Positions 17,150 to 42,014 of a DNA stretch of 64,000 nt are shown here, in pieces. The notes beneath the pieces were generated by a model, which searched no databases, had not been told where the DNA came from, and saw nothing but the letters and a program-made list of their open reading frames with translations. The stretch is from Candidatus Aminicenantes bacterium (GTDB lineage: Bacteria; Acidobacteriota; Aminicenantia; Aminicenantales; JAFGBC01). The translations under genes were made by a program, and so were the position numbers. The first letter of the stretch is position 1, and the number at the start of each line of letters is the position of its first letter. The stretch is taken from contig OY969696.1 of the NCBI GenBank assembly GCA_963702005.1, positions 1,088,001-1,152,000 on the forward strand. The letters are read 5' to 3'.

Positions 17150-18046
17150 ATGAGAGGTTTTAAAGGACGGATTATCATCGGAATTGCGGCATTCTTCCTC
17201 GCGTCCGGGCTCGCTTCGGCTCTCGCGGCCTCCCAGCAGGCCGAACCTCCGGCCCCAACCGGACAGGAGCGGGATTTCTTCATCCGGGAATACATCATCG
17301 GCCCCGGGGACCTGCTCGAGCTCAAGGTCTTCGAATTGCCCGACCTCAACCAGAAAGTCCGCGTCTCCCAGGACGGGTCCATCACCCTGCCCCTCTTGGG
17401 GAGCGTCAAGGTCGGAGGGATGACCAAGGACGGGGTCGAGGCCCAGTTGGCCAAGCTTCTTGAAGCGCGATTCCTCAAGAACGCCCAGGTCTCGGTCTTC
17501 ATCCTCGAATACCAGAGCAACCGGATCGCCGTCATCGGCGCCGTCGAGAAGCCGGGGATGTACGAAATCGTCGGACGCAAGTCGCTGATCCAGATGCTTT
17601 CCCAGGCCGGCGGGCTCAAGGACAGCGCGGCCAACGATATTTATGTCCTCCGGGAAGGCAAGGACGGGGTCACCGCCTCCCTGGCCATCGACCTCGAGGA
17701 CCTGATCATCAACGGCAACCAGCAGCTCAACATTCCGCTCCAGCCCAACGACGTCGTCAACGTCCCCGTCGACCGGATGATCACGGTCTACGTCTTCGGC
17801 GAGGTCAAGCAGCCGGGCGCCATCCAGGTCAAGATGTCGAGAAAGATCACCCTCCTCCAGGCCATCGCCCAAGCCGGGGGGACGACCGAGGACGCCGCCC
17901 GGGGGAGCATCATCGTCACCCGCAAGGACAAGTCCGGGAAGGAGACCAAGATCAAGGCCAACCTCAAGGACATCATCAAGGGGAAAAAGCCCAATATTCC
18001 CCTGCTCGAGGGCGACGTCGTCTATGTGCCCACCAGCATTTTCTGA
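17150..18046 (+). CDS. wza: Polysaccharide export protein (short OPX, Poly_export + SLBB domains)
   Basis: YIIGPGDLLE, DGSITLPLLG, GAVEKPG, GEVKQPG, LLQAIAQAGG, GDVVYVP. Confidence 0.9.
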   Translation: MRGFKGRIIIGIAAFFLASGLASALAASQQAEPPAPTGQERDFFIREYIIGPGDLLELKVFELPDLNQKVRVSQDGSITLPLLGSVKVGGMTKDGVEAQLAKLLEARFLKNAQVSVFILEYQSNRIAVIGAVEKPGMYEIVGRKSLIQMLSQAGGLKDSAANDIYVLREGKDGVTASLAIDLEDLIINGNQQLNIPLQPNDVVNVPVDRMITVYVFGEVKQPGAIQVKMSRKITLLQAIAQAGGTTEDAARGSIIVTRKDKSGKETKIKANLKDIIKGKKPNIPLLEGDVVYVPTSIF

Positions 18047-18058
18047 GAGAGGATCGCG

Positions 18059-20296
18059 ATGAACGGAACGAGCGCCAACAACAACGAGTTCGTGGACCTT
18101 CCCCCTCAGCAGGAGATCAACCTCCGCGAATACTGGGACATTCTCTGGCGGCGGCGCTGGCTGATCGGCGCCTTCGCCCTAGCCTTGATTTTCATCGTCG
18201 GCGTCTGGACGTTCACGGCCCGTCCGACCTACACGGCCAAAGGCACCCTCCTCATCGAGAAGGAGGCCAACATCCTGACCTTCGAGGAGATCTTCCAGAT
18301 CGAAAGCTTCCGCGACGATTACTACCAGACCCAGTACAAGCTCCTCCAAAGCCGGGCTCTGGCCGCGGAAACGGTGAACCGCCTCAATCTCTTCGAGAAC
18401 AAGGAGTTCGTCGGGAACGGCCGGAACGGGGCTAAATCCGGCAAGGATGATCCGGTCCTGAGGCAAAAACTCATAAACGAATTCCTGAGCCGGCTCCAGA
18501 TCAAGCCCCTCCGTCTGACGCGCCTGGTCGAGGTCTCGTTCAGCTCCCGGAGCCCCAAGCTGGCCGCCGACGGCGTCAACACGCTTTTCGACGCCTTCAT
18601 TGATATGAACGTCAACGCCAAGTACGAGGCGACCGAGCAGGCCACCGAGTTCCTGACCCAGCAGATCAACGGACTGCGGACCGAAATCGCAGCCAAGGAG
18701 CGCGAGCTCCAATCGTACGGCGCCGAGAAGAACATCATCGCCCTGAGCGACACCGAAACGACGATCGTCGACAAGCTGGGAGAGCTCAACAAAGCGCTGA
18801 CCGAAGCCCAGATCGACCGGCTCCGCAAGGAGGCGAACTACAACGAAATCCGGAACGCCTCGGCCGACTATATCCCCGAGGCCGTCAACAATCCCCTGAT
18901 CCAAAGGCTTCGCGAGGACTACGTCCGGATGAGCCGCGAGTACTCCAAGAAGTCCGAGACCTTCCGGCCCGAATACCCGGAAATGGTCCGCCTCAAGGCC
19001 GAGCTCGACAGCGCCCGCGAGCTCTTGGCCAACGAGACCAACAACTTGATCAAAGCGGCCTACTCGGAATTCCAGGGCGCGCAAAAGAGAGAGATGTCCT
19101 TGCAGAGCGTGTTCGACAACCAGAAGAAGGAGGCCCTTCAGCTGAATTCGAACGCCATCCTCTATAACGGGCTGAAAATCGAGCTCGACAACAAGAAGAG
19201 CCTCATCGAAACGCTCCTCAAACGGGAGAGCGAGACGGGAGTCTCGGCCCGCCTGCGCGGGCTGAGGACGTCCAACATCCGGATCGTGGACCGCGCCGAC
19301 AAGCCGCTCCAGCCCTCGAGCCCGAAAAAGAGGATGAATATGGTCCTGGCTCTCCTGTTCGGGCTTTTCGGGGGCGTCGGCCTGGCCCTGCTCCTCGATC
19401 ACCTGGACGATACGATCAAGGGAGCCCAGGATATCGAAAAGAACGCCCAGCTGCCCACGCTCGGGATCGTGCCTACGTTCAGCCTCGATGAAGGAAAATC
19501 CGGGTACGGGTACGGACGGAAGAAAAAAATAAAGGAAGGTCGCGGCGTTGAGGACGATCGGGGAGCGAAGGAGAAGTCCGCCGAGCCGCCGGTCAAGTCC
19601 ATCGAGCTCATCACTCACCTCGCGCCCAAGTCCAATTTTTCCGAGAGCTATCGCTCCATCCGGACGTCGCTCTTGCTCTCGGGCTCCGCGCCCGACCTGC
19701 GGGCCATAATCGTGACCTCGCCCCTGCCGTCGGAGGGCAAGACCGTGACCGTCTCCAACCTGGCCGTGACGCTGGCCCAGACCGGGAAGCGCGTCCTCGT
19801 CATCGACGCCGACCTCCGCAAGCCGCGCATGCACCGGATCTTCCGGATGAGAAACCTGACCGGCCTGACGAATTTTCTGACGACCGGGGTCGAGCTCAAG
19901 GAGCTCGTCAAGGCCACCGAGATCCCCAACCTTTATCTCATCACCTCGGGGCCGGTGCCGCCCAACCCGGCCGAGCTTCTGGGCTCGGACAAGATGTTCA
20001 AGCTCCTCGAAACCCTGAAGGGGAATTTCGCCTACATCTTGATCGATACGCCTCCCATCCTGGCCGTGACCGACGCCCTCGTCCTCGGGCCGGCCATCGA
20101 CGGCTTCGTCATCATCGTTTGGGGGGATAAGACTCCGCGTGACGCCCTTAAGCAGGCCCGAGACACCTTGGAAATGACCAAGATCAAAACCCTGGGCGTC
20201 ATCATCAACAACCTCAACGTTCACAAGCACGGGTCATATTACAAGAGCTATTACTACAAGTACCAGCATTACTACGAGGAGGGTCAGAAGTCTTGA
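18059..20296 (+). CDS. wzc: Polysaccharide co-polymerase / BY-kinase
   Basis: Two TMs with coiled-coil, ESYRSIRT, SEGKT Walker A, IDADLRKP, LIDTPP, Tyr-rich tail YYKSYYYKYQHYY. Confidence 0.93.
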   Translation: MNGTSANNNEFVDLPPQQEINLREYWDILWRRRWLIGAFALALIFIVGVWTFTARPTYTAKGTLLIEKEANILTFEEIFQIESFRDDYYQTQYKLLQSRALAAETVNRLNLFENKEFVGNGRNGAKSGKDDPVLRQKLINEFLSRLQIKPLRLTRLVEVSFSSRSPKLAADGVNTLFDAFIDMNVNAKYEATEQATEFLTQQINGLRTEIAAKERELQSYGAEKNIIALSDTETTIVDKLGELNKALTEAQIDRLRKEANYNEIRNASADYIPEAVNNPLIQRLREDYVRMSREYSKKSETFRPEYPEMVRLKAELDSARELLANETNNLIKAAYSEFQGAQKREMSLQSVFDNQKKEALQLNSNAILYNGLKIELDNKKSLIETLLKRESETGVSARLRGLRTSNIRIVDRADKPLQPSSPKKRMNMVLALLFGLFGGVGLALLLDHLDDTIKGAQDIEKNAQLPTLGIVPTFSLDEGKSGYGYGRKKKIKEGRGVEDDRGAKEKSAEPPVKSIELITHLAPKSNFSESYRSIRTSLLLSGSAPDLRAIIVTSPLPSEGKTVTVSNLAVTLAQTGKRVLVIDADLRKPRMHRIFRMRNLTGLTNFLTTGVELKELVKATEIPNLYLITSGPVPPNPAELLGSDKMFKLLETLKGNFAYILIDTPPILAVTDALVLGPAIDGFVIIVWGDKTPRDALKQARDTLEMTKIKTLGVIINNLNVHKHGSYYKSYYYKYQHYYEEGQKS

Positions 20297-21072
20297 TCGA
20301 CCTTCATACCCATCTCCTGCCGGACTGGGATGACGGGGCCGGAAGCTGGGAGGAATTCCGGGCCATGGCCGGGATCGCGCACGCCGACGGGATCGGCACG
20401 ATCGTCCTGACGCCGCACGTCTTCCGGCTCAGCAAACACGCCGACGATTTGAATGTTCTCGAGAGCCGGTTCGCCGAGGTCGCCGCGGTAGAGTCGAAAA
20501 CGGCCGTGGCTTTCCTGCGCGGGGCCGAGATCTTCCTCCATCCCGGCGTCGCCGAGACCGCGAAAACATGGAACTTGACGATCAACGCTTCGAACTATTT
20601 CTTTCTCGAATTTCCGGAGGATGCCGTTCCCCCCGGCGTTCGGGAGTTCTTTTTCGAGATCATGCTCGGCGGCTTGACGCCGATCATCAGCCATCCCGAG
20701 CGGAACGACGTCTTCCGGGAGCGGCCGGACCTGCTCTATGATCTCATCCGGACGGGCGCCCTGGCCCAGGTCACGGCTAAGAGCATCACGGGCGGATTCG
20801 GCGCGGAGACGAAGAAAACGGCGCGGCTCTTCCTGAAACACAACCTGGTTCAGGTCATCGCCTCGGACGCGCACGACCCGGAGCGCCGGCCGCCCCGGTT
20901 GGCCGCGGCGGTCGAGGAAGCGGGCGCGATCGTCGGCCGGGAGAAAGCGCTGGCCATGGTGACCGATATTCCGCGGGCCATCCTGGACAATGCTCCCATC
21001 CCGGACTGGGGCGTGCCCGAGAATCCGGCCCGGAAGAGGAAATGGACCCTTCGTCTTCCGAAATTCGCATGA
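20293..21072 (+). CDS. PHP-family protein tyrosine phosphatase (CpsB/CapC/YwqE-like)
   Basis: MIDLHTHLLP..DDGA, TPH, HPERN, ASDAH. Confidence 0.9.
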   Translation: MIDLHTHLLPDWDDGAGSWEEFRAMAGIAHADGIGTIVLTPHVFRLSKHADDLNVLESRFAEVAAVESKTAVAFLRGAEIFLHPGVAETAKTWNLTINASNYFFLEFPEDAVPPGVREFFFEIMLGGLTPIISHPERNDVFRERPDLLYDLIRTGALAQVTAKSITGGFGAETKKTARLFLKHNLVQVIASDAHDPERRPPRLAAAVEEAGAIVGREKALAMVTDIPRAILDNAPIPDWGVPENPARKRKWTLRLPKFA

Positions 21073-22508
21073 GAAAATTCGTTTTTTGGGGAGTTTGCGC
21101 CGTCGCGGCCTTCCTGCCCATTCCCTTCGGCTCCATGGAGGAATGGGCCGTATTCGCCTTCGAGGCCGCGGTCGCGCTCCTTTTCGCCGCGTTTTGGCTG
21201 GGCGTGAAGGGCGGCGAATGCGGCGGGGAGAGCGGCGCCAAGGTTCTTCCCTGTTTCCTGAAAGCGTTTCTGGCCGCGTTTTTCGTTCTATCGGCGATTT
21301 CGATCATCCCCCTTCCGGCTGCCGTCGTCGGCGCGATCTCTCCCCGGGCGGCGGCTTTAAGGTCCGGCCTGGCCTCGCTCGGCTTGGGAGCCTCCGGGGG
21401 CGGCGGCTGGATGACTCTTTCGCTGGCGCCGACGGTTTCTCTGTACACTCTGGTCCGATACGCGGCCTACGGGATGTTCGCTTTCCTGGTCTTTCGCTCC
21501 GTGAAGACGCGGAAAGAGGTCGAGATCTTCCTTTGGGTCCTGGCGGCGACGGCGGTCTTCGAGGCAACCTACGGCATCGCCCAGGTTTTCGGCGGCACGG
21601 AAAGGATTTTTTCCTACCAGAAAAAATGGGACCTCGGCTCGGTGACCGGAACCTACATCAACCGGAACCACCTGGCCGGCTTCCTGGAAATGGTCTTTCC
21701 GCTCGTCCTCGGCCTCCTGCTGGCCAAGGCGGATTTCTTCGCCATGGGCCGGCGGGCGACGTTCAAGGAGAGGATCCTGTGGTTCGGCCAGGAGAAGCTC
21801 CAGAAAACATTCATGGTCGGGTTGGTCGCGGCCGTCCTCGGCTTGGGGCTCATTTTCACCAAATCCCGTTCCGGCGTCCTCATCTTCCTCATCACGGTCT
21901 TCTTGATGATGATCGCGATCTCGGCCGCGGGGGACACCGCCAGAGGCGGTGCGGGGCGGCGCGGCCATCGACTGATCCGGATGATCGGGCTGGCCGTCGT
22001 TTTCGCGGCCGTCCTCATCGGCGTCCGTCCCGTCATCGAACGATTCACCAGGGAGAAAGTGACGTTCGAGGCGGGCCGGCCCGTCTACTTCCGGAACGCG
22101 GCGAGGATCATCCGGGACTACCCTCTGGCCGGGACGGGCTCCGGGACGTTCGTTTACGCCTACCAGAGGTACGAGGAAAAGGACAGCCGGGTCATCGTCG
22201 ATCACGCCCACAACGATTATCTGGAGATCATGGCCGAGAACGGGATTCCGGCGGGATCGGCGTTCTGGGCGTTTATGTTCGGAGTCTTCGGCCTCGGGCT
22301 TGCACGTTGGCTTAAGCGGCGGGATCCCTTCGTCAAGGGGGTCGGGCTGGGCTGCCTGGGCGGCTTGGCGGCCATCTTCATCCACAGCCTGGCCGATTTC
22401 AACCTCCAGATCACCGCGAATGGGGCCGTCTTCTGTGCCCTTGCCGCGCTACTCCTACGCGTGACGGGCCTCGAAAGCCGACGGTCCGGGAGGGATTATG
22501 TCCGCTGA
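21069..22508 (+). CDS. O-antigen ligase family (Wzy_C) membrane protein
   Basis: GTYINRNHLAG, TKSRSG, DYPLAGTGSGTF, HAHNDYLE, HSLADFNLQI. Confidence 0.85.
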   Translation: MRKFVFWGVCAVAAFLPIPFGSMEEWAVFAFEAAVALLFAAFWLGVKGGECGGESGAKVLPCFLKAFLAAFFVLSAISIIPLPAAVVGAISPRAAALRSGLASLGLGASGGGGWMTLSLAPTVSLYTLVRYAAYGMFAFLVFRSVKTRKEVEIFLWVLAATAVFEATYGIAQVFGGTERIFSYQKKWDLGSVTGTYINRNHLAGFLEMVFPLVLGLLLAKADFFAMGRRATFKERILWFGQEKLQKTFMVGLVAAVLGLGLIFTKSRSGVLIFLITVFLMMIAISAAGDTARGGAGRRGHRLIRMIGLAVVFAAVLIGVRPVIERFTREKVTFEAGRPVYFRNAARIIRDYPLAGTGSGTFVYAYQRYEEKDSRVIVDHAHNDYLEIMAENGIPAGSAFWAFMFGVFGLGLARWLKRRDPFVKGVGLGCLGGLAAIFIHSLADFNLQITANGAVFCALAALLLRVTGLESRRSGRDYVR

Positions 22509-26946: not shown

Positions 26947-27029
26947 TTGACCCGTTCGCCGACGCCACCCAGCCTTGCAGTACTCAGACTAAGCCGAAAA
27001 CGGCTTAGTCTGGGTGTCGATGATTTGAC
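26947..27029 (+). mobile_element. TTGAC-bounded hairpin element, copy 2 (83 bp)
   Basis: TTGACCCGTTCGCCGACGCCACCCAGCCTTGCAGTAC-stem(CAGACTAAGCCG AAAA CGGCTTAGTCTG)-GGTGTCGATGATTTGAC; near-identical to 60569-60651. Confidence 0.8.
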
Positions 27030-27054
27030 AAGCCGGCTCGCGCCGCGGTATTCT
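27025..27054 (+). promoter_or_regulatory. Promoter TTGACA-N18-TATTCT for beta-propeller gene 1; -35 coincides with element end
   Basis: Same architecture as the promoters of paralogs 2 and 3. Confidence 0.6.
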
Positions 27055-27148
27055 CAACCGATATTGGATGTATGGATGTTTCAGGAGCGCCTACGGCCGG
27101 AGCGCAACGCGGCCCGGGGATGAGCGAGGAGCGTTAAGGGAGGTCATC

Positions 27149-29413
27149 ATGGATCAACACCGAAAGCGGTTTCTTGGATTGTTTCTGATCGGATTCATTC
27201 TTTCCGCAGCCGTCGCTCGGCCAGACCAGGCCCTGACCTGGAGCCGGATCGGCAAAGGCGGCCTGGACGGACCGTATAACCCGCTTCAGGAGGATCTGAA
27301 CGCCGCCTGCCTGTTCGGCGGCAAGCTCTGCGTCGGAACCTGGGGCGGCCAGATTTGGAGCTATGACGGAAGCGAGTGGGTTCTGATCCACAAGCCCAAG
27401 CCGGGCAAGAACCTCATCCGGGAAGTGCAATCCCTGGCCGTCCTCGGGGATTACCTCTATGCCGGCATGTACCTGAGCAATCAAACCTGCCAGGTTTGGC
27501 GGACCAGCGGCACGGGGAAGCTTCCCTATCGATGGACGAAAGTCAGCGGCGCCGCGAATATCGAAAATTCCGAGGCTCATGAAGCGCCTTCAATGGCTGT
27601 CGTCAAAGGGGTTCTTTATGTCGGTACAGAGGGCTATTACGGCTGCCAGGTCTGGTCGTACAACGGCAGCGCTTGGACCGAGGTTGTCGGGCAAGGTTCC
27701 GCCGGCTCGGCCACCGGTCCCGGCTTCGGCGACAAAGCGAATTACGTGGCGAGCTCCATGACTTCATCCGCGTCGGGCGATCTTTATGTCGGCACGGGCC
27801 GGCATGACGGAGGCGAGGTCTGGCGGCTGAACAGCTCGGGCTGGGCCATGGTCAACAAGCCCGGCTTCGGGGTCTCTTCTAATTTCCGTATCCAAACCCT
27901 GGCCTTCTTCAACGACAGCCTCTATGGGGGCACCATCAATGATGAGAAGGGCGCCCAGGTCTGGAAATACGTCGGGCCCGGCCCGTCGAATTGGAAGGCG
28001 GTCGGGCTCAACGGAATGGGCGATGTCAAGAACAGGCTCGTCGCCTCCGCGGCCGTCTTCGGGGACCCCGCCCGACTGTATGTGATTACGGATAACGGAG
28101 AACGAGGCTGTCAGGTTTTGAGGACGAACGGGAAGACCTGGGAGAAGGCCAACGCGAACGGATTTGGAGAGGGTCCGACCAATTGCATAGGCGGGTTCCT
28201 GGCCGTCTTCAGGGGGAAACTCACCGCCGGCTTGGACAGCGATTTCGGCGGCCGGGTCTACGCGACGGCCGGCGGCGCCAAGGTCCCCTTCGCCTGGACG
28301 CAGGTGAACGACTCCGGTTTCACCCGGAACGACAACGAACTGTTCGGGGCCGCGGCCTTCTTTGGCGGAAAGCTTTATGTCGGGACCCATAACTCCCTGG
28401 GCTGCGAAGTCTGGCGTTACGAAGGGAACGGCTGGACCCAGGTCGCGACGGGCGGGTTCGGCGATCCCTACAACGATAGCGTGTGGTCCATGGCCGTCGC
28501 CAACGGCTATCTCTACGCCGGCGCCGAGAATTGGGAGACGGGGGCCGAGATCTGGCGCTACGACGGGTCGAAATGGACCCAGGCCAACAAGAGCGGGTTC
28601 GGGGACGCCTCGTCGGGAATGGCCAGCGCCATGGCCGTCCACCAGAACAAGCTCTACGTGGGGACGCGGAACTATGACCACGGTGCTACGATTTGGCGTT
28701 GCGACGGTCTCAAAACATCCCAATGGACGAAGGTCAACACGAACGGCTTCGGCGTTTTGGCGACGATCGGAATCCAGTCCTTGGCCGTCTTCAGTAATAA
28801 GCTCTATGCCGGGACCCTGGACGAGAGCGGCCGCTGCCGGGTCTGGAGGTACGACGGCCCCGGGCCGTCCGGGTGGACGGCGGCGAACGAGGCGGGGTTC
28901 GGCGTCGATAGCAACTATGCCGCGTCCGGCCTGGCCGTTTATACGGGGGCGCTCTATGCGGAGACTTGGACCGAGGGCAACGGCGGTTGCGAGGTGTGGC
29001 GCTACTCCGGCGCCGGTACGGCCTGGAGCCAGGTCAACGTCGGCGGCTTCGGGAAAGCCGCCAATGAATATGCGGATTCCATGATCGTCTTCAAAAATCT
29101 CATGTATGTCGGCACCTGGAACGAGTCGAACGGGGGCGAGATCTGGTCTTACGACGGCAGCGTCTGGAGCCAGGTCAATAAATCCGGATTCGGGGCCAAC
29201 ACCAACATCGGGATCGAATCGATCGCCAGCGATGGGACCGATCTTTACGCCGGGACCGAGAATGACTTCACCGGCGGCGAGGTCTGGACGACCGGGACCG
29301 GGAGCGCGAGCCCCCCGATCTTCCGGGCGGCTCCGTTCCCGTCGATCCCGCGAGTGCATCGGAGGCATCCGAGAGAAGCCTCCCAGCCGAGGCTTCATTC
29401 CCGGACGCGGTAG
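27149..29413 (+). CDS. Secreted tandem beta-propeller repeat protein, paralog 1
   Basis: Signal peptide; about 14 repeats of W.Q.N..GFG...N.....LYVGT....G.E.W.YDG; ATG after GGGAGG. Confidence 0.75.
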   Translation: MDQHRKRFLGLFLIGFILSAAVARPDQALTWSRIGKGGLDGPYNPLQEDLNAACLFGGKLCVGTWGGQIWSYDGSEWVLIHKPKPGKNLIREVQSLAVLGDYLYAGMYLSNQTCQVWRTSGTGKLPYRWTKVSGAANIENSEAHEAPSMAVVKGVLYVGTEGYYGCQVWSYNGSAWTEVVGQGSAGSATGPGFGDKANYVASSMTSSASGDLYVGTGRHDGGEVWRLNSSGWAMVNKPGFGVSSNFRIQTLAFFNDSLYGGTINDEKGAQVWKYVGPGPSNWKAVGLNGMGDVKNRLVASAAVFGDPARLYVITDNGERGCQVLRTNGKTWEKANANGFGEGPTNCIGGFLAVFRGKLTAGLDSDFGGRVYATAGGAKVPFAWTQVNDSGFTRNDNELFGAAAFFGGKLYVGTHNSLGCEVWRYEGNGWTQVATGGFGDPYNDSVWSMAVANGYLYAGAENWETGAEIWRYDGSKWTQANKSGFGDASSGMASAMAVHQNKLYVGTRNYDHGATIWRCDGLKTSQWTKVNTNGFGVLATIGIQSLAVFSNKLYAGTLDESGRCRVWRYDGPGPSGWTAANEAGFGVDSNYAASGLAVYTGALYAETWTEGNGGCEVWRYSGAGTAWSQVNVGGFGKAANEYADSMIVFKNLMYVGTWNESNGGEIWSYDGSVWSQVNKSGFGANTNIGIESIASDGTDLYAGTENDFTGGEVWTTGTGSASPPIFRAAPFPSIPRVHRRHPREASQPRLHSRTR

Positions 29414-29498
29414 CCCGGACTTTCCGAGGGCGCCTGACAGCCGGGGCGGCGTCCGCCAAGCCGGCCGCCGGAGCGCCGCGCCGTCTGTGAGGGTCGCC

Positions 29499-29528
29499 TT
29501 GACAAGTCGCCGGACATGGCGTTATCTT
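29499..29528 (+). promoter_or_regulatory. Promoter TTGACA-N18-TATCTT for paralog 2
   Basis: Conserved with 32091-32120 in the duplicated intergenic region. Confidence 0.6.
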
Positions 29529-29618
29529 CGGCGTATAGAATTATCATAATCCCCGGATAGGCGCCGAGATCCGCGAATTTTTGTCGTGGCCCGGGCAAGG
29601 GGGAGGAAGGGAGATTTC

Positions 29619-31898
29619 GTGAACAAGCATGGCAAGGCGTTATTGGCGTCTTTGTTTGTCGCGGCGATTTTGACCGCGGCGGCCTTCGCCGACGAGGCCC
29701 TGACCTGGAGCCGGATCGGTAAAGGCGGCCTGGACGGGCCGTATAATTATCTCCAGTATGGCCTCAACGCCCCCTGCGTTTTCAAGGGGGCTCTTTATGT
29801 CGGCACCGGCGGCGGCATGTCGTTCGGCGGCCAAATCTGGCGCTATGACGGGCACGAGTGGGTCATGGTCCATAAGCCCAAGCCGGGCCATACGCGAATT
29901 GACGCGGTGACGACTCTGGCCGTCCTCGGCGATTATCTCTATGGGGGCATGTCTGTCAACGACGGGACCTGCGAGGTCTGGCGTACCGACGGGACGGGGA
30001 AGCCCCCCTATCGCTGGACCAAGATCAGCGCGCCGGCGAACATCAGCCAGCAATATACGTACATGGTGAGTTCGATGACCGTCGTCAACGGATATCTGTA
30101 CTGCGGCACCTGGAACAACGTGAAGGCTTGTCAGGTCTGGAAATACAGCGGAAGCGCCTGGACCCAGGTCGTCGGGCAAGGCCCCTCGGGATCGCCCACC
30201 GGCCCGGGCTTCGGCAATAAGAATAACTACGTGGCGCGGTCCATGACCTCTTCGGCCTCGGGAGATCTTTATGTCGGGACGGGCAACAGCGGGGGCGGCG
30301 AGGTCTGGCGGCTGACGAGCTCCGGCTGGACCAAGCTCAACAAGCCCGGATTCGGCGCGTCCAAGAACTCCTACATCAGCGTCCTTATCTTCTTCAAGAA
30401 CAGCCTCTATGCGGGCACCCAGAATTACACTAAGGGCGCCCAGGTCTGGAAATATTTGGGGCCGGGCCCCGCGAACTGGAAGGCGATCGGGCTCAACGGG
30501 ATGGGCGACGCCAACAATTATAATATCGGCGCGGCGGCGGTCTTCGGAAACCCGGGCTGGCTGTATATCATCACCGCGAACTATGAAAACGGCTGCCAGG
30601 TCCTGAGGACCAACGGAACGAAATGGGAGAAGGCCAACGCAAACGGGTTCGGGGAGGGGAAGACCAACGGGGATGGCGGCGCCCTGGCTGTCTTTGACGG
30701 CAAGCTCTATGCCGGATTGAACGGCGATTTCGGCAGCCGGGTCTACGCGACCGCGGGCGGCGCCAAGGTGCCGTTCGCCTGGACGCTGACGAATGATTCC
30801 GGATTCAGCCTGAACGACAACGAAAGGATCGGCTGCTCGGCGTTCTTCGGCGGAAAGCTCTACGTCGGGACCTATAACGGCCTGGGCTGCGAAATCTGGC
30901 GCTATGAGGGGAACGCCTGGACCCAGGTCGTCTCGGGCGGGTTTGGAGATCCTAATAATTATGAAGCCGAGTCCATGGCCGTCGCGGACGGCTATCTTTA
31001 CGTCGGGACCGGCAACTGGCTGACCGGCGCCGAGGTCTGGCGCTATGACGGGTCGAAGTGGACCCAGGCCAACAAGGACGGATTCGGAGACGCGACATCG
31101 GGTGAAGCCGCGGCAATGATCGTTCACCAGGACAAACTCTACGTTGGCACGCAGAGCTATAACACCAAGGCCAAGGTTTGGAGATGCGACGGCCTCAAGA
31201 CGACCCAATGGACGAAGGTCAACACCAACGGCTTCGGCATGGCCACCACGGTGGGCGCGATATCGTTCGCCGTCTTAAACAACAAGCTTTACGCCGGGAC
31301 CTACGATATGAACGATCCCTGCCACGCTTGGAGGTATGACGGCCCCGGGCCGTCGAACTGGACGCTGGTCAGCGCGGAGGGGTTCGGAAACAAGGCAAAC
31401 CACGGAGTGGACGCGCTGGCCGTCTATAAGGACGCCCTCTACGCGAGCGTCTACTCCGCCGATCAGACAGGCTGCCAAATCTGGCGCTATTCGGGCAACG
31501 GAACGAGCTGGAGCCGGGTCAACGTCAGCGGTTTCGGCAAGGCCAACAACGGTATGGCGGACGCCATGATCGTCTTTAAAAATCTTCTGTACGTCGGCAC
31601 CTGGAACGGGGTGAACGGGGGAGAAATCTGGTCCTACGACGGCGGCGTCTGGAGCCAGGCCAATAAGAGCGGCTTCGGGACCAATAATAATTACGGAGTC
31701 CTCACTCTGGCGGGCGACGGCGCCGATCTTTACGCCGGCACCGTGAACGACATGACCGGCGGCGAGGTCTGGACGACCGGGGCGGGGAGCGACAGCCCCC
31801 TGATCCTCCGGGCCAACCCATTCCCGTCGTTCCCGAAAGCTCATCGGAAGTACCCGAAGGAAGCCTACCAGTCGAGATTTCATTCCCGGACGCGATAG
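29619..31898 (+). CDS. Secreted tandem beta-propeller repeat protein, paralog 2
   Basis: 14 LY(V/A)GT-type repeats counted; signal peptide AFA|DE; GTG start after AAGGGAG. Confidence 0.75.
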   Translation: MNKHGKALLASLFVAAILTAAAFADEALTWSRIGKGGLDGPYNYLQYGLNAPCVFKGALYVGTGGGMSFGGQIWRYDGHEWVMVHKPKPGHTRIDAVTTLAVLGDYLYGGMSVNDGTCEVWRTDGTGKPPYRWTKISAPANISQQYTYMVSSMTVVNGYLYCGTWNNVKACQVWKYSGSAWTQVVGQGPSGSPTGPGFGNKNNYVARSMTSSASGDLYVGTGNSGGGEVWRLTSSGWTKLNKPGFGASKNSYISVLIFFKNSLYAGTQNYTKGAQVWKYLGPGPANWKAIGLNGMGDANNYNIGAAAVFGNPGWLYIITANYENGCQVLRTNGTKWEKANANGFGEGKTNGDGGALAVFDGKLYAGLNGDFGSRVYATAGGAKVPFAWTLTNDSGFSLNDNERIGCSAFFGGKLYVGTYNGLGCEIWRYEGNAWTQVVSGGFGDPNNYEAESMAVADGYLYVGTGNWLTGAEVWRYDGSKWTQANKDGFGDATSGEAAAMIVHQDKLYVGTQSYNTKAKVWRCDGLKTTQWTKVNTNGFGMATTVGAISFAVLNNKLYAGTYDMNDPCHAWRYDGPGPSNWTLVSAEGFGNKANHGVDALAVYKDALYASVYSADQTGCQIWRYSGNGTSWSRVNVSGFGKANNGMADAMIVFKNLLYVGTWNGVNGGEIWSYDGGVWSQANKSGFGTNNNYGVLTLAGDGADLYAGTVNDMTGGEVWTTGAGSDSPLILRANPFPSFPKAHRKYPKEAYQSRFHSRTR

Positions 31899-31918
31899 CC
31901 CGGCCTCTTCGGAAGCCC

Positions 31919-32030
31919 TTGACCCGTTCGCCGACGCCAAGCCCCGCCTTTCAAGGCGGGGATGAGAGCGAGGCTCAGGGTTAATCATGAACAAGCCCCG
32001 GCCTTCAGGCCGGGGAGTCGATGATTTGAC
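31919..32030 (+). mobile_element. TTGAC-bounded hairpin element, copy 3 (112 bp incl. both TTGAC)
   Basis: Shared ends; hairpins CCCCGCCTT-TC-AAGGCGGGG and CCCCGGCC-TTCA-GGCCGGGG; absent from the paralogous site at 29434. Confidence 0.85.
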
Positions 32031-32090
32031 AGCCGGGGCGGTATCTCTCCGGTCCGGCCCTGGAGCGCCGCGTCGTCCCTGAAGGCCGCC

Positions 32091-32120
32091 TTGACAAACC
32101 GCAGGGCCCGGCGGTATCCT
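32091..32120 (+). promoter_or_regulatory. Promoter TTGACA-N18-TATCCT for paralog 3
   Basis: Paralogous to 29499-29528. Confidence 0.6.
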
Positions 32121-32212
32121 CGGCGCATAGACAACATCATGACCCCCAATCGACGGCCGGTGTCTCCGCGCTTGGGCCGCGGCCCGCGCGCGGGCGGGGG
32201 AAGGGAGGTCGC

Positions 32213-34447
32213 TTGAACGATCGTCGAAGGATTATTGGCGCTTCTGTGCTAGTTGTTTTGCTATTGACCGCGACCGCGTTCGCTGACCAGGCCTTGACCT
32301 GGAACAGAATCGGCCGCGGCGGACTCGACGGACCGTATAGTCCGATTCAATATGGCCCGGGAGCCTCATGCCTATTCAACGGCAAGCTGTATTACGGCAC
32401 CGAGGGCGGTTGGTCGTTTGGCGGCCAAATCTGGTGCTATGACGGACATGACTGGGTCATAGTCCATAAGCCAAAAGCGGGCAAGCCGCGCATCACCTCC
32501 GTTACGGCCCTGGCCGTCCTCGGAGATTATCTCTACGCCGGCATGAACCTCACCGACAACTCTTGCCAGGTCTGGCGCACAAAAGGGACGGGGAAGCCCC
32601 CCTATCAATGGACAAAAGTCAGCGGTCCGGCGAATATCGAGAATGACGACGCCGAAGAAGTGCCTTCGATGACGGTCATCAAGAGCCTTCTTTATGTGGC
32701 CGCACGAAGCAGCAACTATGGCTGCCAGGTCTGGGCGTACAACGGCAGCGCTTGGAGCCAGGTCGTCGGGCAAGGCCCCTCGGGGTCTCCCACCGGACCG
32801 GGCTTCGGCACCAAGGATAATTACAATGCGCCGTCCATGGTCTCGTCAGCCGCCGGCGACCTCTATGTGGGGACGTCCAATTCCAAAGGCGCCGAGGTCT
32901 GGCGCAAGAATAAATCGGGTTGGGCCAAGCTCAACAATCCGGGCTTCGGCACGTCCAAAAATTACATCGTTAATGTCTTGATCTTTTTCAAGAACAGCCT
33001 CTACGCGGGTACCAGGAATTGGGATCAAGGCTGCCAAATCTGGAAATACCTCGGGCCGAGCCCCTCGAACTGGAAAGCGGTCGTCAAGGGCGGCTTGGGC
33101 GATCCCAAAAATGAGACCGTGGCGTCCGCGGCCGTCTTCGGGACCCCCGGCTACCTTTTCTTCATAACGGAAAACAGAGAATCAGGCTGCCAGGTCCTGA
33201 GGACGAACGGAACAAAGTGGGAGAAGGCCAACAAGAGCGGATTCGGAGAGGGACACGCCAATCCCTGGGGGACCAATTTGATCGTCTTCAACGGCGAGCT
33301 CTATAGCGGCGTGGACAGCTGGTTCGGCGCCCGGATCTACGCGACGAGCGGCGGCTCCAAGCTCCCCTTCGCCTGGACCCTGGTGAACGAAAACGGCTTC
33401 TCCACCAACGACAACGAAGATGCCCCGTCCGCGGCCATCTTCGGCGGACGGCTCCACATCGGGACCTTCAACGGCCTGGGCTGCGAGGTCTGGCGCTATG
33501 AAGGGAACGGCTGGATCCAGGTCGCCTCGAGCGGTTTCGGAGATCTGAACAACTCTGAAGCGATGTCCATGGCCTCCGCCGGCGGCTTTCTCTATGTCGG
33601 GACCTACAACGGGGAAACGGGAGCCGAGATCTGGCGCTACGACGGGTCCAAATGGACCCAGGCCAATAAAAACGGATTCGGGGACGCGTCGACGGAAAAT
33701 GCGCAAGCGATGATCGTATATCAAGGAAAGCTCTATGTCGGGACCGAGAGCTATAAAACCAAGGGCAAGGTCTGGCGCTGCGACGGCCCCGGGGCCTCCC
33801 AATGGACGCAGGTCAACACGAACGGATTCGGCGTCTCCCACACCATCGGCGTCAATACGTTCGTCGTCTTCAACGACAAGCTCTACGCGGGGACCTACGA
33901 TTCCAACGATCCCTGCCGCGTCTGGAGATACGACGGCCCCGGCCCGACCGGTTGGACGGCGGTCAGCCTGGAAGGTTTCGGCAACAAGGACAACCACGAG
34001 GTCAATCAGCTGGCCGTCTATAAGGGAGCCCTCTATGCGTTAGTCTGGAACGCCGCCATGACCGGCTGCGAGGCATGGCGATACTCCGGAAGCGGAACGA
34101 TCTGGTCCAAGGTCAACGTCAGCGGATTCGGGAAGCAAAACAACAGCTCCGCCTACAGCATGCTCGCCTTCTCGAATAAGTTGTACGTCGGCACCGTGAA
34201 CGGGACGAACGGAGGCGAAATCTGGGCGTATGACGGGAGCGTCTGGAGCCAGGCGAATAAGAGCGGGTTCGGAACCAACAATAATAGGTCGATTTCCGTT
34301 CTCATCAGCGACGGCGGCAATCTCTATACCGGGACGAACAACAGCGCGACCGGCTGCGAGGTCTGGACGACCGGGGCGGGGAGCTCGAGCCCCCTGATCT
34401 GGCGGGCCAGCCCGTTTTCGGCCCCCCGGAAGCCCCGGCGGCGGTAG
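32213..34447 (+). CDS. Secreted tandem beta-propeller repeat protein, paralog 3
   Basis: Colinear with paralogs 1 and 2; signal peptide AFA|DQ; TTG start after GGGAGG. Confidence 0.75.
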   Translation: MNDRRRIIGASVLVVLLLTATAFADQALTWNRIGRGGLDGPYSPIQYGPGASCLFNGKLYYGTEGGWSFGGQIWCYDGHDWVIVHKPKAGKPRITSVTALAVLGDYLYAGMNLTDNSCQVWRTKGTGKPPYQWTKVSGPANIENDDAEEVPSMTVIKSLLYVAARSSNYGCQVWAYNGSAWSQVVGQGPSGSPTGPGFGTKDNYNAPSMVSSAAGDLYVGTSNSKGAEVWRKNKSGWAKLNNPGFGTSKNYIVNVLIFFKNSLYAGTRNWDQGCQIWKYLGPSPSNWKAVVKGGLGDPKNETVASAAVFGTPGYLFFITENRESGCQVLRTNGTKWEKANKSGFGEGHANPWGTNLIVFNGELYSGVDSWFGARIYATSGGSKLPFAWTLVNENGFSTNDNEDAPSAAIFGGRLHIGTFNGLGCEVWRYEGNGWIQVASSGFGDLNNSEAMSMASAGGFLYVGTYNGETGAEIWRYDGSKWTQANKNGFGDASTENAQAMIVYQGKLYVGTESYKTKGKVWRCDGPGASQWTQVNTNGFGVSHTIGVNTFVVFNDKLYAGTYDSNDPCRVWRYDGPGPTGWTAVSLEGFGNKDNHEVNQLAVYKGALYALVWNAAMTGCEAWRYSGSGTIWSKVNVSGFGKQNNSSAYSMLAFSNKLYVGTVNGTNGGEIWAYDGSVWSQANKSGFGTNNNRSISVLISDGGNLYTGTNNSATGCEVWTTGAGSSSPLIWRASPFSAPRKPRRR

Positions 34448-37902: not shown

Positions 37903-39189
37903 ATGGAGAAGAGGCCTTTTAACGCCTTCGAAATGGCTCAGCAGCAGTTCGACGGCGTAGCCGAGAAGCTCGGCCTCGAACCCTCAGTCCGAGAGCTGCT
38001 TCGCAACCCCTTGCGCGAGTACCACTTCCTGATCCCGATCCGGATGGATGACGGCGGACGCCAGGTTTTCAAAGGATTCCGCGTTCAGCATAACGACGCC
38101 CGCGGCCCGTGCAAGGGCGGCATCCGCTTCCACCCCCACGAAACGGTCGACACGGTCCGCGCCCTGGCCATGTGGATGACCTGGAAAACGGCCGTCGTCG
38201 ACATCCCGCTCGGGGGCGGCAAGGGCGGCGTCATCTGCGACCCCCACAACCTGAGCGATCGCGAGCAAGAGGCCGTCTGCCGCGGCTGGGTTCGCCAGGT
38301 TGCCATGAACGTGGGCCATGAGCAGGACGTCCCCGCCCCGGATGTCATGACCCACGGCCAGCACATGCTCTGGATGCTCGACGAGTTCGAGCGGATCCGG
38401 GGAGGGAAGTTCCCCGGCTTCATCACCGGCAAGCCGGTCGGCATGGGCGGCTCGCTGGGCCGGACCGAAGCGACCGGCTACGGCGTCATGTACGCGGTTC
38501 GCGAGGCCATGAAGGAAATCGGGCTCGATATCAAGAAGGCGGTCGGAGCCTTCCAGGGTTTCGGGAACGTCTCCCAGTACGCCGTCCGGCTCTTCCGCGA
38601 GTACGGCGGGAAGCCCGTCTGCGTCTCCTGCTGGGACCAGGCCGACCAGACGTCCTACACCTTCCGGCGCGAGAGCGGGATCGATCCCGACGAGCTCATG
38701 GCCATCACCGACAAGTTCGGCACGATCGATAAAACCAAGGCCCGGAAGGCCGGCTACGAAATCCTGCCCGGCGAAGCCTGGATCGAGCAGGAGGCCGACC
38801 TCCTCGTTCCGGCCGCCCTCGAGAACCAAGTCAGCGGAGCCAACGCCGGCAAAATCCACAAGCGGGTCAGGGTCATCGCCGAGGGAGCCAACGGGCCGAC
38901 GACCCCCGAGGCCGACCTGGTCATCCGCGAGCGCGGGATCTTCATGATCCCCGATTTCCTGTGCAACGCCGGCGGCGTCACCTGCAGCTATTTTGAGCAG
39001 GTCCAGTGCAATATGAATTTCTACTGGGGGATGAACGAGGTCCTCTCCCGGCTGGACGAGAAGATGACGGCCGGTTTCAAGGCCGTCTCCGCGCTCGCCC
39101 GCAAGCAGAACGTTTATATGCGCGACGCCGCCTACATGATCGCGATTTCCCGGGTCGCCGAGGCCTGCCGCCTCCGCGGCTGGGTCTGA
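37903..39189 (+). CDS. gdhA: Glu/Leu/Phe/Val dehydrogenase (glutamate dehydrogenase)
   Basis: RGPCKGGIRFHP, MTWK, GGGKGG, DVPAPD, GRTEATGYG, QGFGNV, EGANGPTT, NAGGVTCSYFE. Confidence 0.93.
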   Translation: MEKRPFNAFEMAQQQFDGVAEKLGLEPSVRELLRNPLREYHFLIPIRMDDGGRQVFKGFRVQHNDARGPCKGGIRFHPHETVDTVRALAMWMTWKTAVVDIPLGGGKGGVICDPHNLSDREQEAVCRGWVRQVAMNVGHEQDVPAPDVMTHGQHMLWMLDEFERIRGGKFPGFITGKPVGMGGSLGRTEATGYGVMYAVREAMKEIGLDIKKAVGAFQGFGNVSQYAVRLFREYGGKPVCVSCWDQADQTSYTFRRESGIDPDELMAITDKFGTIDKTKARKAGYEILPGEAWIEQEADLLVPAALENQVSGANAGKIHKRVRVIAEGANGPTTPEADLVIRERGIFMIPDFLCNAGGVTCSYFEQVQCNMNFYWGMNEVLSRLDEKMTAGFKAVSALARKQNVYMRDAAYMIAISRVAEACRLRGWV

Positions 39190-39233
39190 GCCCGGGCCGC
39201 CGGCCGCGGCCGGCGGGGGCGGACGGCAAGGAC

Positions 39234-42014
39234 ATGAATAATAACAAAGGGCCCGTCCTCGTCCCGAGCGGACGACTCCGCGAGCGGGTCAAGGAGCTCG
39301 AGTGCCTCCAGGCCGTCGTGGAGATCATCGACACGCCCGGCCTGCGCTCCCATGAGGTCCTCCAGGGCGTCGTCGATATCATCCCCTCCGGCTGGCAGTA
39401 TCCGGAGCAGTGCCGGGCCCGCATCAAGTACCGGAAGGCTGTTTTCCATACGCCCGGCTTCGTCGAAACCCGCTGGATCCAGCGCGTTCCGCTGAAAGCC
39501 CACGGGGTTCCGGTCGGGGCCCTCGAGGTTTGCTACTTCGAGAACGTCTCGAACCGCGAGGACCCCTTCCTGCTCGAGGAGAAGAAGCTCATCGCCCTGA
39601 TCGGGAACCGCATCAGCCGGCTGATCGAGGACTGGGAAAGAGCGGCTCTGCCGGCCGCACCGGCCGCCGGGGCTGGTCCCTGTCCCAAGCGGAAGACCGA
39701 GTGGAACGTTATCATGGACCTCCTCAAGGAGACCGACGCCATCCTCTACAAGCGGATCCTGCGCCGGCTCATGAACCACCTCCACTGGCAGGGCGTCCCG
39801 GGCGTCCAGGGTCTTCTTCTCCATTTCGCGCCCGAATTCTATCCGGGGGAACCCGAGGCGCCCCGGGACGAAAACCAGCCGCTCCCCAAACGGAACGTCG
39901 AAACCCTGGAGAGGGTGTTCGAGGAGGCCCTCTGGATCGCCTCGCTGGCCATCCCCGACCGGGAGTTGTCCGACCTCCTCAAGCAGTGGATGCGCCAGGA
40001 CAAGCTCGGCGACTTCATGCTCGCGACCGAAAAGCGGGATATCTCCCTGGTCGAGCTCAAGGAGATCGTTAACCGCTTCACGCGGACGACGGCCGAGGAC
40101 GAGCAAGCCCTGTCCCGGGCCGACGACCTCCAGGCCCGGATCGCCCTCATCCGCCGCTTCCTGAGCGAACGGCTGCCCTTCATCCGGATCGCCAAGGAGT
40201 TCATCTCCATCCATAGTTTCGGCCGGGTCTTGGCCCGCGTCGCCGGCCCCAGCCAGGGGACGGGCCGGCTGGGAGGAAAGGCCGCCGGCATGGTCCTGGC
40301 CGATCACATCCTCCGCAAAAAATCCGGGGAGAATCCGGCCATCGGCGAATTCCGCGTCCCCGACACCTGGTTCATCGCTTCGGACGGGGTCATGGATTTC
40401 ATCCACTACAACTTCCTCGAGGACCTTCAAAGCTTCAAGTTCTCGCCGATCGAGGAGGTCCGCCATAACTATCCCTATCTCGAGCAGGTCTTCAAACACT
40501 CCTTCTTCTCGCCCGAGATCCACAGCCAGCTCAGGCTCATCCTGGACGACATGGGCGAGGGACCGCTCATCGTCCGCTCCTCGAGCCTTCTCGAAGACAG
40601 CAAGAACATGGCCTTTTCGGGGAAGTACAAAAGCTTGTTCCTGGCCAACACCGGCCCCAAGGAGGAGCGGCTGGCGGCTCTCCTCGACGCCGTGGCCGAG
40701 GTCTACGCCTCGCTCTTCAACCCGGACGCCATCCAGTACCGGGCCGAGCGCGGGCTCCTCGACTATTACGAGGAGATGGGCGTCCTCGTCCAGAGGGTCG
40801 TCGGGCGCCGCGTCGGCCGCTTCTTCTTCCCGGCCTTCGCCGGGGTCGCCTTCGGCAACAATGAATTCCGCTGGTCGCCCCGGGTCCAGCGCGAGGACGG
40901 AGTCCTCCGCCTGGTGGCCGGGCTGGGGACGCGGGCCGTCGACCGGGTCGGGAACGATTATCCCGTCCTGGTCAGCCCCGGCCAGCCCGGGATCCGGGTC
41001 AACGTGACGCCCGAGGAGGTCCTCCACTACGCCCAGAAGCACGTCGACGTCATCAACCTGGAAACGGGGCGTTTCGAGACGCACCCGATCGACGAGATCC
41101 TCAAGGAGGTCGGCGCCGACTTTCCGCTCTGGGACCGGATCCTATCCGTCAGCGACGGGAGCACGGTCCGCCGGGCGAATCGCGCCCTGGACCGCCCGGA
41201 CCGGGATGACATGGTGGTGACCTTCAACGGCCTCATCGAAGGGACGGGATTCATCAAGCAGATGCGGGAGCTGATGCGGGCTCTCCGGGACACCTTCGGG
41301 ATGCCGATGGACGTCGAGTTCGCCCACGACGGGGCCAGTCTTTATATCCTTCAGTGCCGGCCCCAGAGCCAAGTCGATGACGAGGGGCCGGTCGAGATCC
41401 CGGCCTGGGTTCCCGAGCGGCGAAAGCTTTTCTCCGCGAACCGCTACGTGACGAACGCCCTGGTTCGGGGGATCCGGACCATCGTCTACGTGGACCCGGA
41501 GCGATACGGCGAGATGTCTTCGCTTGCCGACATGATCGCCGTCGGCGAAGCCGTCAACCGGCTCAATGCCCTGCTCCCCCCCAAGTCGTTCATCCTGATG
41601 GGTCCGGGGCGGTGGGGGAGCCGCGGCGACATCAAGCTCGGGGTCCGGGTCACCTACTCGGACATCAACAACACGGCCATGCTCGTCGAGATCGCCCGCA
41701 AGGTCGGCAACTACGTCCCCGACCTGTCTTTCGGGACTCATTTCTTCCAGGACCTGGTTGAAGCCCGCATCCGCTACCTGGCCCTCTATCCCGACGAGGA
41801 GGGGGCGATTTTCGCCCAAGATTTCTTCAGCAAGACGCCGAACGCGCTGGCCAAGCTCCTTCCCGAGTACGAATATCTCTCGGACGTCGTCCGGGTGATC
41901 GACGTCGCCGAGGCGGCCGGCGGCTGCGAAGTTCAGATCGTCATGGACGCCGAGAGCGAACGAGCCCTCGGCTTCCTGGCCGACCAGAAGCCGGGGTCCT
42001 GCCAGGGGCCGTAG
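39234..42014 (+). CDS. PEP synthase/PPDK N-terminal (ATP-grasp) domain protein lacking the His and PEP-binding domains
   Basis: LGGKAAG, IVRSSSLLED, FSGKY.S, EEMGVLVQ, DVEFA, LQCRP, GPGRWGS, DLSFGTHFFQDLVE. Confidence 0.8.
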   Translation: MNNNKGPVLVPSGRLRERVKELECLQAVVEIIDTPGLRSHEVLQGVVDIIPSGWQYPEQCRARIKYRKAVFHTPGFVETRWIQRVPLKAHGVPVGALEVCYFENVSNREDPFLLEEKKLIALIGNRISRLIEDWERAALPAAPAAGAGPCPKRKTEWNVIMDLLKETDAILYKRILRRLMNHLHWQGVPGVQGLLLHFAPEFYPGEPEAPRDENQPLPKRNVETLERVFEEALWIASLAIPDRELSDLLKQWMRQDKLGDFMLATEKRDISLVELKEIVNRFTRTTAEDEQALSRADDLQARIALIRRFLSERLPFIRIAKEFISIHSFGRVLARVAGPSQGTGRLGGKAAGMVLADHILRKKSGENPAIGEFRVPDTWFIASDGVMDFIHYNFLEDLQSFKFSPIEEVRHNYPYLEQVFKHSFFSPEIHSQLRLILDDMGEGPLIVRSSSLLEDSKNMAFSGKYKSLFLANTGPKEERLAALLDAVAEVYASLFNPDAIQYRAERGLLDYYEEMGVLVQRVVGRRVGRFFFPAFAGVAFGNNEFRWSPRVQREDGVLRLVAGLGTRAVDRVGNDYPVLVSPGQPGIRVNVTPEEVLHYAQKHVDVINLETGRFETHPIDEILKEVGADFPLWDRILSVSDGSTVRRANRALDRPDRDDMVVTFNGLIEGTGFIKQMRELMRALRDTFGMPMDVEFAHDGASLYILQCRPQSQVDDEGPVEIPAWVPERRKLFSANRYVTNALVRGIRTIVYVDPERYGEMSSLADMIAVGEAVNRLNALLPPKSFILMGPGRWGSRGDIKLGVRVTYSDINNTAMLVEIARKVGNYVPDLSFGTHFFQDLVEARIRYLALYPDEEGAIFAQDFFSKTPNALAKLLPEYEYLSDVVRVIDVAEAAGGCEVQIVMDAESERALGFLADQKPGSCQGP

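Follow-up and report, generated by a model that had tools for sequence, protein, structure and literature searches.

A tandem gene array in a 64,000-nucleotide (nt) stretch of contig OY969696.1 from a Candidatus Aminicenantes bacterium (this whole stretch is called the window, and its positions are used as coordinates) holds one insertion site in both its occupied and its unoccupied state. The spacer that follows the second of three paralogous genes (spacer 2) carries a 107-nt element, here called copy D, which is missing from the homologous spacer after the first paralog (spacer 1). Copy D is a discrete mobile element bounded by TTGAC and not a chance insertion or deletion, and it is a member of a repeat family that is abundant in Aminicenantes bacteria and apparently undescribed. 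The element most probably entered spacer 2 after the tandem duplication of the genes, which is the simplest history and needs a single event.

The initial annotation had described the two spacers as homologous and had stated that removal of the element together with one TTGAC makes them colinear again, and both statements hold to the base on inspection of the sequence and in alignment. In spacer 1 the pentamer CTGAC is directly followed by AGCCGGGGCGG, whereas in spacer 2 there are 107 nt, the last five of them a second TTGAC, between the pentamer TTGAC and AGCCGGGGCGG, and the distance from the stop codon to the pentamer is exactly 23 nt in both. MAFFT alignment of 29380-29625 with 31865-32220 gave 74% column identity and one clean long gap of 107 columns; the other gaps are three of 1 nt (columns 268, 331 and 355), none of them beside the insert. 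With blastn, the left 200-nt flank of the insert fell on 29239-29421 (82.5% identity) and the right 200-nt flank, from its first base on, fell on 29439-29624 (71.6%), so that the right-hand junction is exact to the base. The empty site reads CTGAC and not TTGAC, as had been noted before. A family profile built from 19 canonical copies in other genomes covered 31919-32030 over its full length (positions 1-113 of 113, E 1.3e-30). The coordinates of all features are collected in Table 1.

Table 1. Features of the window that bear on copy D, its relatives and their surroundings.
Feature	Position	Strand	Remarks
Copy C	467-619	-	Three-hairpin form; 18 nt after the terminal TTGAC: GATAAT
Copy A	26947-27029	+	Family left and right ends; one internal hairpin, of a different kind; terminal TTGAC 27025-27029
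Promoter-like site of paralog 1, TTGACA-18-TATTCT	27025-27054	+	-35 is the terminal TTGAC of copy A
Paralog 1	27068-29413	+	781 amino acids; stop codon TAG 29411-29413
Unoccupied paralogous site CTGAC	29434-29438	+	Counterpart of 31919-31923 in the sister spacer
Promoter-like site of paralog 2, TTGACA-18-TATCTT	29499-29528	+	Homologous to the site at 27025; unoccupied
Paralog 2	29586-31898	+	770 amino acids; 67% identical to paralog 1; stop codon TAG 31896-31898
Left TTGAC of copy D, target-side pentamer (like a target-adjacent motif, TAM)	31919-31923	+	Matches CTGAC 29434-29438 of spacer 1
Copy D, inserted element, 107 nt	31924-32030	+	One 107-column gap; full-length profile match
Copy D, left linker, 18 nt	31924-31941	+	
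Copy D, hairpin 1	31942-31961	+	
Copy D, central GGGTTAA-type motif	31978-31984	+	
Copy D, hairpin 2	31996-32015	+	
Copy D, right linker, 10 nt	32016-32025	+	
Copy D, terminal TTGAC	32026-32030	+	
Promoter-like site of paralog 3, TTGACA-18-TATCCT	32091-32120	+	Unoccupied; 61 nt downstream of copy D
Paralog 3	32213-34447	+	744 amino acids; 63% identical to paralog 1
Composite E	47100-47305	+	At least four hairpin modules; family right end 47292-47305, left end absent; left limit approximate
Unoccupied orthologous site GTGAT	47479-47483	+	Between the stop codon of a small open reading frame and ATG 47487
Copy B	60569-60651	+	Type as copy A; upstream of an open reading frame for a PMT-family glycosyltransferase

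Both hairpins of copy D are G+C-rich, resemble each other and lie in direct orientation, and neither of their motifs occurred in any of 100 shuffles of the window. As single-stranded DNA the element folds at -28.9 kcal/mol (z -4.4). It contains no open reading frame (ORF), it was not matched in the plasmid and phage collections, and a search of the whole window against Rfam at gathering thresholds matched nothing. Hairpin 2 appeared as an intrinsic terminator in a minus-strand scan and was rejected as such, its T run being weak and the count of such hairpins equal to that in shuffled sequence. The possibility that the element contains a sigma-54 promoter, or a sigma-70 promoter of its own, was likewise discarded, since properly spaced hexamers were absent by eye.

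The window holds five copies or parts of the family (A, B, C, D and the composite E). For the wider family, a collection of genomes was scanned with the 19-letter left end of the element, GAC being required, which gave at least 110 matches in at least 108 stretches (labelled L with a number). Of these matches, 54 were kept as element copies, in at least 52 stretches, after a script filter and the exclusion by hand of L003, L009, L012, L053 and L070, and two of the 54 may still be chance matches; the remaining 56 matched by chance, in coding sequence of G+C-rich bacteria and of two archaeal assemblies. All family counts given here refer to the matches listed and are lower bounds, so that the family comprises at least 54 copies in at least 52 stretches. 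Assemblies with Candidatus Aminicenantes or Aminicenantia in the title supply most of these stretches, and two titled uncultured Eubacteriales supply four (L014, L022, L026 and L028); either the latter titles are imprecise or the family is wider than the Aminicenantes. Literature searches on Aminicenantes together with miniature inverted-repeat elements found no paper, a 14-nt string from the left end was likewise unmatched, and searches on Aminicenantes insertion sequences, repeats or palindromes returned, among the matches listed, only general papers on repetitive extragenic palindromes (REPs) and on CRISPR.

The family unit is bounded by defined ends, 16 nt on the left and 14 nt on the right. 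Among the matches listed its commonest form has 108 nt without the left pentamer and shares the plan of copy D; longer forms carry extra hairpin modules and exceed 300 nt, and the shortest have one hairpin and 51-53 nt. One-hairpin forms with normal ends stand at L039 6380-6435, L086 3230-3285 and L060 5194-5233, two of them in one assembly, and because these three loci are different the one-hairpin forms seem to be mobile as such. The loop of hairpin 1 in L004, L013 (two copies), L061, L096, L098 and L101 houses a nested hairpin module of a second type, which in every case follows TTTCAA directly; these modules end in CTTCAG (four), CTTCTG, CTTCAA or CTTCGG and thus repeat the logic of motif, element and similar motif known from TTGAC. 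We considered them as an arbiter between target duplication and an end motif carried by the element, and set them aside because their boundaries are ambiguous and both readings fit. Further arrangements were seen at single loci. At L052 6281-6408 a family right end abuts a complete copy, with one TTGAC common to both and no left end within 700 nt upstream of the first. Complete copies are followed by tandem remnants at L088 1301-1345, where the last 9 nt of the element are repeated, and at L089 1392-1440, where the repeated 14-nt unit begins TTGACCCCGAA; such remnants may be footprints of repeated insertion and loss. A 51-nt family copy is split between GGGG and TTGAC at L060 5234-6347 by an insertion sequence that has inverted ends of its own and encodes a 346-amino-acid integrase-type transposase, IS481-like in our reading of its sequence.

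The element depends on TTGAC, with some tolerance. The left pentamer is TTGAC in 39 of 48 complete copies and the right pentamer in 47 of 50 element right ends; of the three other right ends, two have TCGAC and one belongs to a copy that an unrelated insertion sequence interrupts. The scan itself required GAC, and TT preceded it in 46 of the 54 copies found by the pattern, against a chance expectation of 1 in 16. Left variants are GTGAC (three), CTGAC (two), ATGAC, TCGAC (two), TGGAC, TTAAC and TTGGT, and variants confined to the left side outnumber those confined to the right by 9 to 2 (binomial p 0.065). All eight copies found without the help of the left pentamer (A-D and the second copies of L013, L029, L079 and L094) have the same orientation to their TTGAC or near-TTGAC. 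The dependence on TTGAC that had been proposed from copy D and spacer 1 is thus borne out by the preference of the whole family, but CTGAC need not be a refractory site, since the second copy of L029 and the copy of L035 have CTGAC, the same pentamer as the empty site, on their left. The C of CTGAC therefore cannot be taken as the cause of the empty spacer 1, and the C/T difference between the spacers may be ordinary divergence.

Comparison of the flanks of 57 complete copies with the sequences collected here yielded only two pairs of filled and empty sites, copy D with spacer 1 and L082 with the window. L082 aligns in synteny with two parts of the window, 38677-43864 and 47333-48670 (83-86% identity over long segments), and it is occupied at the site orthologous to 47479-47483 by an element with GTGAC on the left and TTGAC on the right. 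Its left pentamer resembles the empty site and its right pentamer is that of the family, which fits a right pentamer that travels with the element. The intervening window region 43864-47333, with genes for an M24 peptidase and a GH3 glycosidase, is mostly missing from L082 (5185-5272), about 92 nt (44166-44257) matching, which indicates a rearrangement or an insertion or deletion next to repeat copies. The TTGACA of composite E stands upstream of a small ORF and an amidohydrolase gene, and homology with L082 begins 1-2 nt past this TTGAC.

Many copies of the family lie exactly at promoter-like sites. A -10-like hexamer follows the right-end TTGAC by 16-18 nt in 20 of 54 copies, compared with 53 of 803 other TTGAC in the same stretches (Fisher p 1e-9), T or A comes next after the terminal TTGAC in 49 of 54, and among the matches listed copies often lie just upstream of genes. 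In the gene array, a consensus promoter scan found five sites where 0.9 were expected, and three promoter-like sites homologous to one another (TTGACA, 18 nt, TAT(T/C)(C/T)T) precede the three paralogs, one each. Similarity of copy A's right flank to the promoter in spacer 1 and to that in spacer 2 is significant (p 0.011 and below 0.0005), while that of its left flank to those spacers is not (p 0.23-0.27); copy A was considered as a third filled/empty pair and was set aside as suggestive but only half a pair. The scan agrees with the earlier observation that the TTGACA hit by copy D has no properly spaced -10, and in L082 the copy separates the two genes of an operon-like pair. Since neither of these copies is at a promoter, sequence alone is sufficient for insertion. 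The initial annotation had concluded that targeting is by sequence rather than by promoter activity; this stands for copy D, but the family shows strong enrichment at promoter-like sites. Most simply, the TTGAC sites that tolerate insertion would be mainly -35 boxes, restored by the terminal TTGAC of the element.

The ends and the fold of the element were compared in an alignment of 20 copies, whose mean identity is 91%. Two similar hairpins in direct orientation are conserved in all 20, with AAG 5' of each and AC/AG on the 3' side of both stems. The left boundary is separated from hairpin 1 by 18 nt, and hairpin 2 from the terminal TTGAC by 10 nt and from the right boundary by 15 nt. In the consensus fold, pairing between an invariant internal GGGTTAA and the left TTGAC with the CC after it encloses hairpin 1 (domain 1), CCCCGA pairs with TCGAGGGG near the right end and encloses hairpin 2 (domain 2), and the terminal TTGAC is unpaired. 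An internal motif around GGGTTAAC is invariant, as is the central motif GGGTTAACCCC, which is nearly complementary to TTGAC followed by the first bases of the element and to the would-be circle junction GGGG-TTGAC-CCC. No terminal inverted repeat was found in the alignment beyond a match of 5 of 7 end bases (CCGTTCG and the reverse-complement CCCCTCG), and even this is lost in copies A and D. These two copies, at two loci, have GATGAT instead of GAGGGG at the right end, which replaces three of the last four element bases, and in copy D the change is matched in the internal pairing partner and not at the other terminus. Pairing is kept by two-sided changes at pairs 75-114, 77-112 and 93-98, all in copy D, one of them in hairpin 2 and two in the basal stem of domain 2. 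From this compensation we infer that a folded single strand, of DNA or RNA, is recognised rather than a double-stranded terminal repeat.

We tentatively interpret copy D, with somewhat less than even confidence, as a non-autonomous element without an ORF that entered 3' of TTGAC by single-strand transposition resembling that of IS200/IS605. The single-strand HUH mechanism taken by itself, proposed by analogy, we would rate no higher. Movement would be of the 'peel and paste' kind, driven in trans by an enzyme of the IS200/IS605 type that moves palindrome-associated transposable elements (PATEs), or by a relative of the REP-associated tyrosine transposases (RAYTs). The two subterminal hairpins would be the binding sites of a Y1 HUH enzyme, which would cleave the top strand in two places, behind the flanking TTGAC that is the target motif and behind the TTGAC that ends the element itself; the excised circle would then be pasted 3' of another TTGAC. 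When the target is a -35 box, the TTGAC end of the element would rebuild the -35 beside the old -10, and insertions there would be tolerated because the element ends in TTGAC, which would explain why so many copies stand exactly at promoters. Copy D would have landed on a TTGAC that is not part of a promoter.

Among known systems the family is closest to PATEs, the gene-less derivatives of IS200/IS605 elements such as IS608, ISDra2 and ISGst. These elements insert 3' of a tetra- or pentanucleotide and are recognised via subterminal imperfect palindromes (PMC3597680). The likeness extends to palindromes that are subterminal on one strand, the absence of terminal inverted repeats, insertion 3' of a pentamer, a right-boundary pentamer that resembles the target, and gene-less copies presumably moved in trans. 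The left linker is also longer than the right, 18 and 10 nt in the family compared with the 19 and 10 nt given for IS608 in PMC3597680. For ISGst, PMC10055086 describes target and right-end motifs that are similar pentamers, differing at two positions, and gene-less PATE-like copies; in our family, target and end motif are the same (TTGAC and TTGAC). The family further differs in having no partner tnpA or tnpB in the stretches searched, in one-hairpin forms that seem to be mobile, and in its modular build, with further hairpin modules in the loops and no guide assignable beside the hairpins. In IS608 itself, target and end motifs differ from each other. TTGAC has also been predicted as the target motif of one Streptomyces TnpB element (PMC12415229).

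REPs and the bacterial interspersed mosaic elements (BIMEs) offer a second comparison. According to PMC3733652, REP units are palindromes 20-40 bp long that bear at one end an unpaired tag, GTAG or CGTC; they often lie as inverted pairs and mostly downstream of genes. Like these, the family consists of short G+C-rich extragenic hairpins in high copy number that form mosaics of hairpin types, and a RAYT-like enzyme, probably encoded by a single copy elsewhere in the genome, would explain copies without a transposase. The family stems, in contrast, bear no GTAG or CGTC tag on either strand (AAG lies 5' and AC/AG 3'), hairpins 1 and 2 are direct and not inverted, the ends of 16 and 14 nt are defined, and many copies are at promoters. 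The Correia elements of Neisseria are classical miniature inverted-repeat transposable elements (MITEs) that carry promoter elements. Elements of this type resemble the family in being non-coding, intergenic, about 100-150 nt long and flanked by short direct repeats, and in being able to supply promoter hexamers; they differ by long inverted termini and a palindromic or very short target, whereas the family has a non-palindromic 5-nt site and a fixed orientation. Sequence-specific gene-less hairpin elements are well known, and the family is therefore not surprising in kind; it is best classed as a new family within a type of element already known.

Several results weigh against single-strand transposition by an IS200/IS605-like enzyme. 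A Pfam search of 46 ORFs found no transposase in the window, Y1 and HUH enzymes included, and no Y1 or HUH transposase was found among 1724 stop-to-stop ORFs in the 52 element-bearing stretches (346,657 nt), of which 10 passed a loose motif filter that could miss atypical enzymes; on scanning, none of these 10 proved to be a transposase. No ORF lies between family ends, as in an autonomous copy, among the matches listed. The transposase of L060 was considered as the mover of the family and rejected, as it has unrelated inverted ends of its own and merely interrupts a copy. One-hairpin forms that appear mobile are awkward for an enzyme that needs two hairpins. A 4-bp TGAC duplication, preceded by a T of the element, fits L082 and every variant at position 1 equally well, and two copies have the same variant pentamer twice: L073 47-156 has TCGAC on both sides, and L046 4690-4850 has TCGAC on the left and, on the right, the normal TTGAC immediately followed by TCGAC. 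Both of these copies look like cases of a duplicated target, and the favoured reading explains neither. Selection on the right TTGAC as a -35 box could account just as well for its better conservation. The size of the promoter enrichment is overstated, because the control is mostly coding DNA and two of the 54 copies may be chance matches. A replication-related bias, as would follow from insertion into the lagging-strand template, was not seen: the orientation of copies relative to local GC skew is balanced (25 and 26), a weak test in stretches of at most 8 kb where skew is small and noisy. No guide that covaries with the pentamers was identified in the 20-copy alignment or, by eye, in L073 and L098.

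A rival that we consider unlikely is a MITE of the classical kind, mobilised by a DDE transposase that has a strict T/TGAC target and makes a target-site duplication of 4-5 bp; both pentamers would then derive from the target. It would account for the direct repeats that flank nearly every copy, for TCGAC on both sides in L073 and on both outer sides in L046, for the match of the termini CCGTTCG and CCCCTCG at 5 of 7 positions, and for the nested modules, which fit a 4-nt TTCA duplication in 5 of 7 cases. An inverted repeat, however, is absent beyond 7 nt, and copies A and D stand at two loci in spite of their changed end, for which copy D compensates internally and not at the other terminus. 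The target is non-palindromic and yet orientation is fixed in 8 of 8 copies, variant pentamers are mostly left-only (9 versus 2), and the sole DDE gene beside an element among the matches listed, that of L060, has unrelated ends.

The order of events is a separate question from the mechanism. Insertion after the gene duplication had been put forward in the initial annotation; it stands as the simpler order but not as proven, since copy D, 88-90% identical to its nearest relatives and thus about 10-12% different, is not obviously younger than the divergence of the spacers, which are about 26% apart. The opposite order, an element that predates the duplication and was precisely lost from spacer 1, where the remaining TTGAC became CTGAC, is unlikely. 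It requires one event more than a single insertion, although precise excision that joins the target motif to the right flank is the normal IS200/IS605 reaction (PMC10055086). The divergence of copy D, the most divergent row of the 20-copy alignment, would speak for an early element, as it is no fresh insertion by this measure, but this divergence is partly common to copy A (GATGAT), so that it was probably inherited from a local source copy and gives no measure of age for the site. No third homologous spacer that could polarise insertion or loss follows paralog 3.

Rather improbable, in our estimate, is a -35-box-homing element with a DNA guide of its own, in which the invariant GGGTTAACCCC would select TTGAC by pairing and copies would be kept as portable modules upstream of promoters. 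If this were true, the conservation of 91% between copies, compared with 83-86% in one syntenic stretch, would reflect selection and not mere parasitism, and one-hairpin forms that still move would suggest an enzyme different from the Y1 dimers known so far, which use two hairpins.

A circle that carries one TTGAC and recombines site-specifically at a TTGAC core, with an IS110-like, tyrosine or serine recombinase acting in trans, is quite improbable. The single pentamer of the empty site and the two of the filled site would follow from such a reaction, as would the fixed orientation, the tandem copies of L052 with one common TTGAC and the near-complementarity of GGGTTAACCCC to the circle junction, and the mixed pentamer pairs of L073 and L098 could be heteroduplex products of the core. 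On the other hand, no recombinase gene is linked to any copy in the Pfam scan of the window and in the filtered ORFs of the element-bearing stretches, a core of 5 nt is very short for known recombinases, and L046 stays unexplained. To our knowledge, the hairpin architecture and linker lengths are not features of core-recombination systems. Very improbable, finally, is a non-mobile regulatory or structural module of the host (a protein-binding palindrome or RNA hairpins) spread by recombination: identity of 91% between assemblies, above the 83-86% over long segments of the one stretch syntenic with L082, the invariant motif around GGGTTAAC and the frequent position just upstream of genes are outweighed by two exact filled/empty pairs, base-precise at a specific pentamer, by copies between unrelated genes in several assemblies, by nested and tandem insertions and by the absence of an Rfam family.

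Paralogs 1-3 (27068-34447) are long repeat proteins with a hydrophobic N-terminus and a motif LYVGT...G.EVWRY..G.W every 45-50 residues or so; their Pfam matches of Kelch type are all below threshold, and they are probably secreted beta-propeller proteins, as judged from these repeats. A cluster for polysaccharide synthesis and export occupies 3430-22508 of the window, with a flippase, Wzy-type polymerases, glycosyltransferases, a sugar transferase, an aminotransferase, a dehydratase, Wza/Wzc-like export proteins and a CpsB-type phosphatase.

The two spacers thus present a filled and an empty site next to each other, for a small element that targets the -35 hexamer of bacteria at its core. If the element truly homes to TTGAC and restores it, a selfish element would be able to colonise promoters at little cost and would readily supply regulatory variation to a lineage that is uncultured and poorly known. 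In annotation, the family explains many intergenic hairpins in Aminicenantes assemblies and marks the positions of promoters. Useful test cases for the recognition of ends by HUH-type or other enzymes are offered by the one-hairpin forms, the nested modules and the identity of target and end motif.

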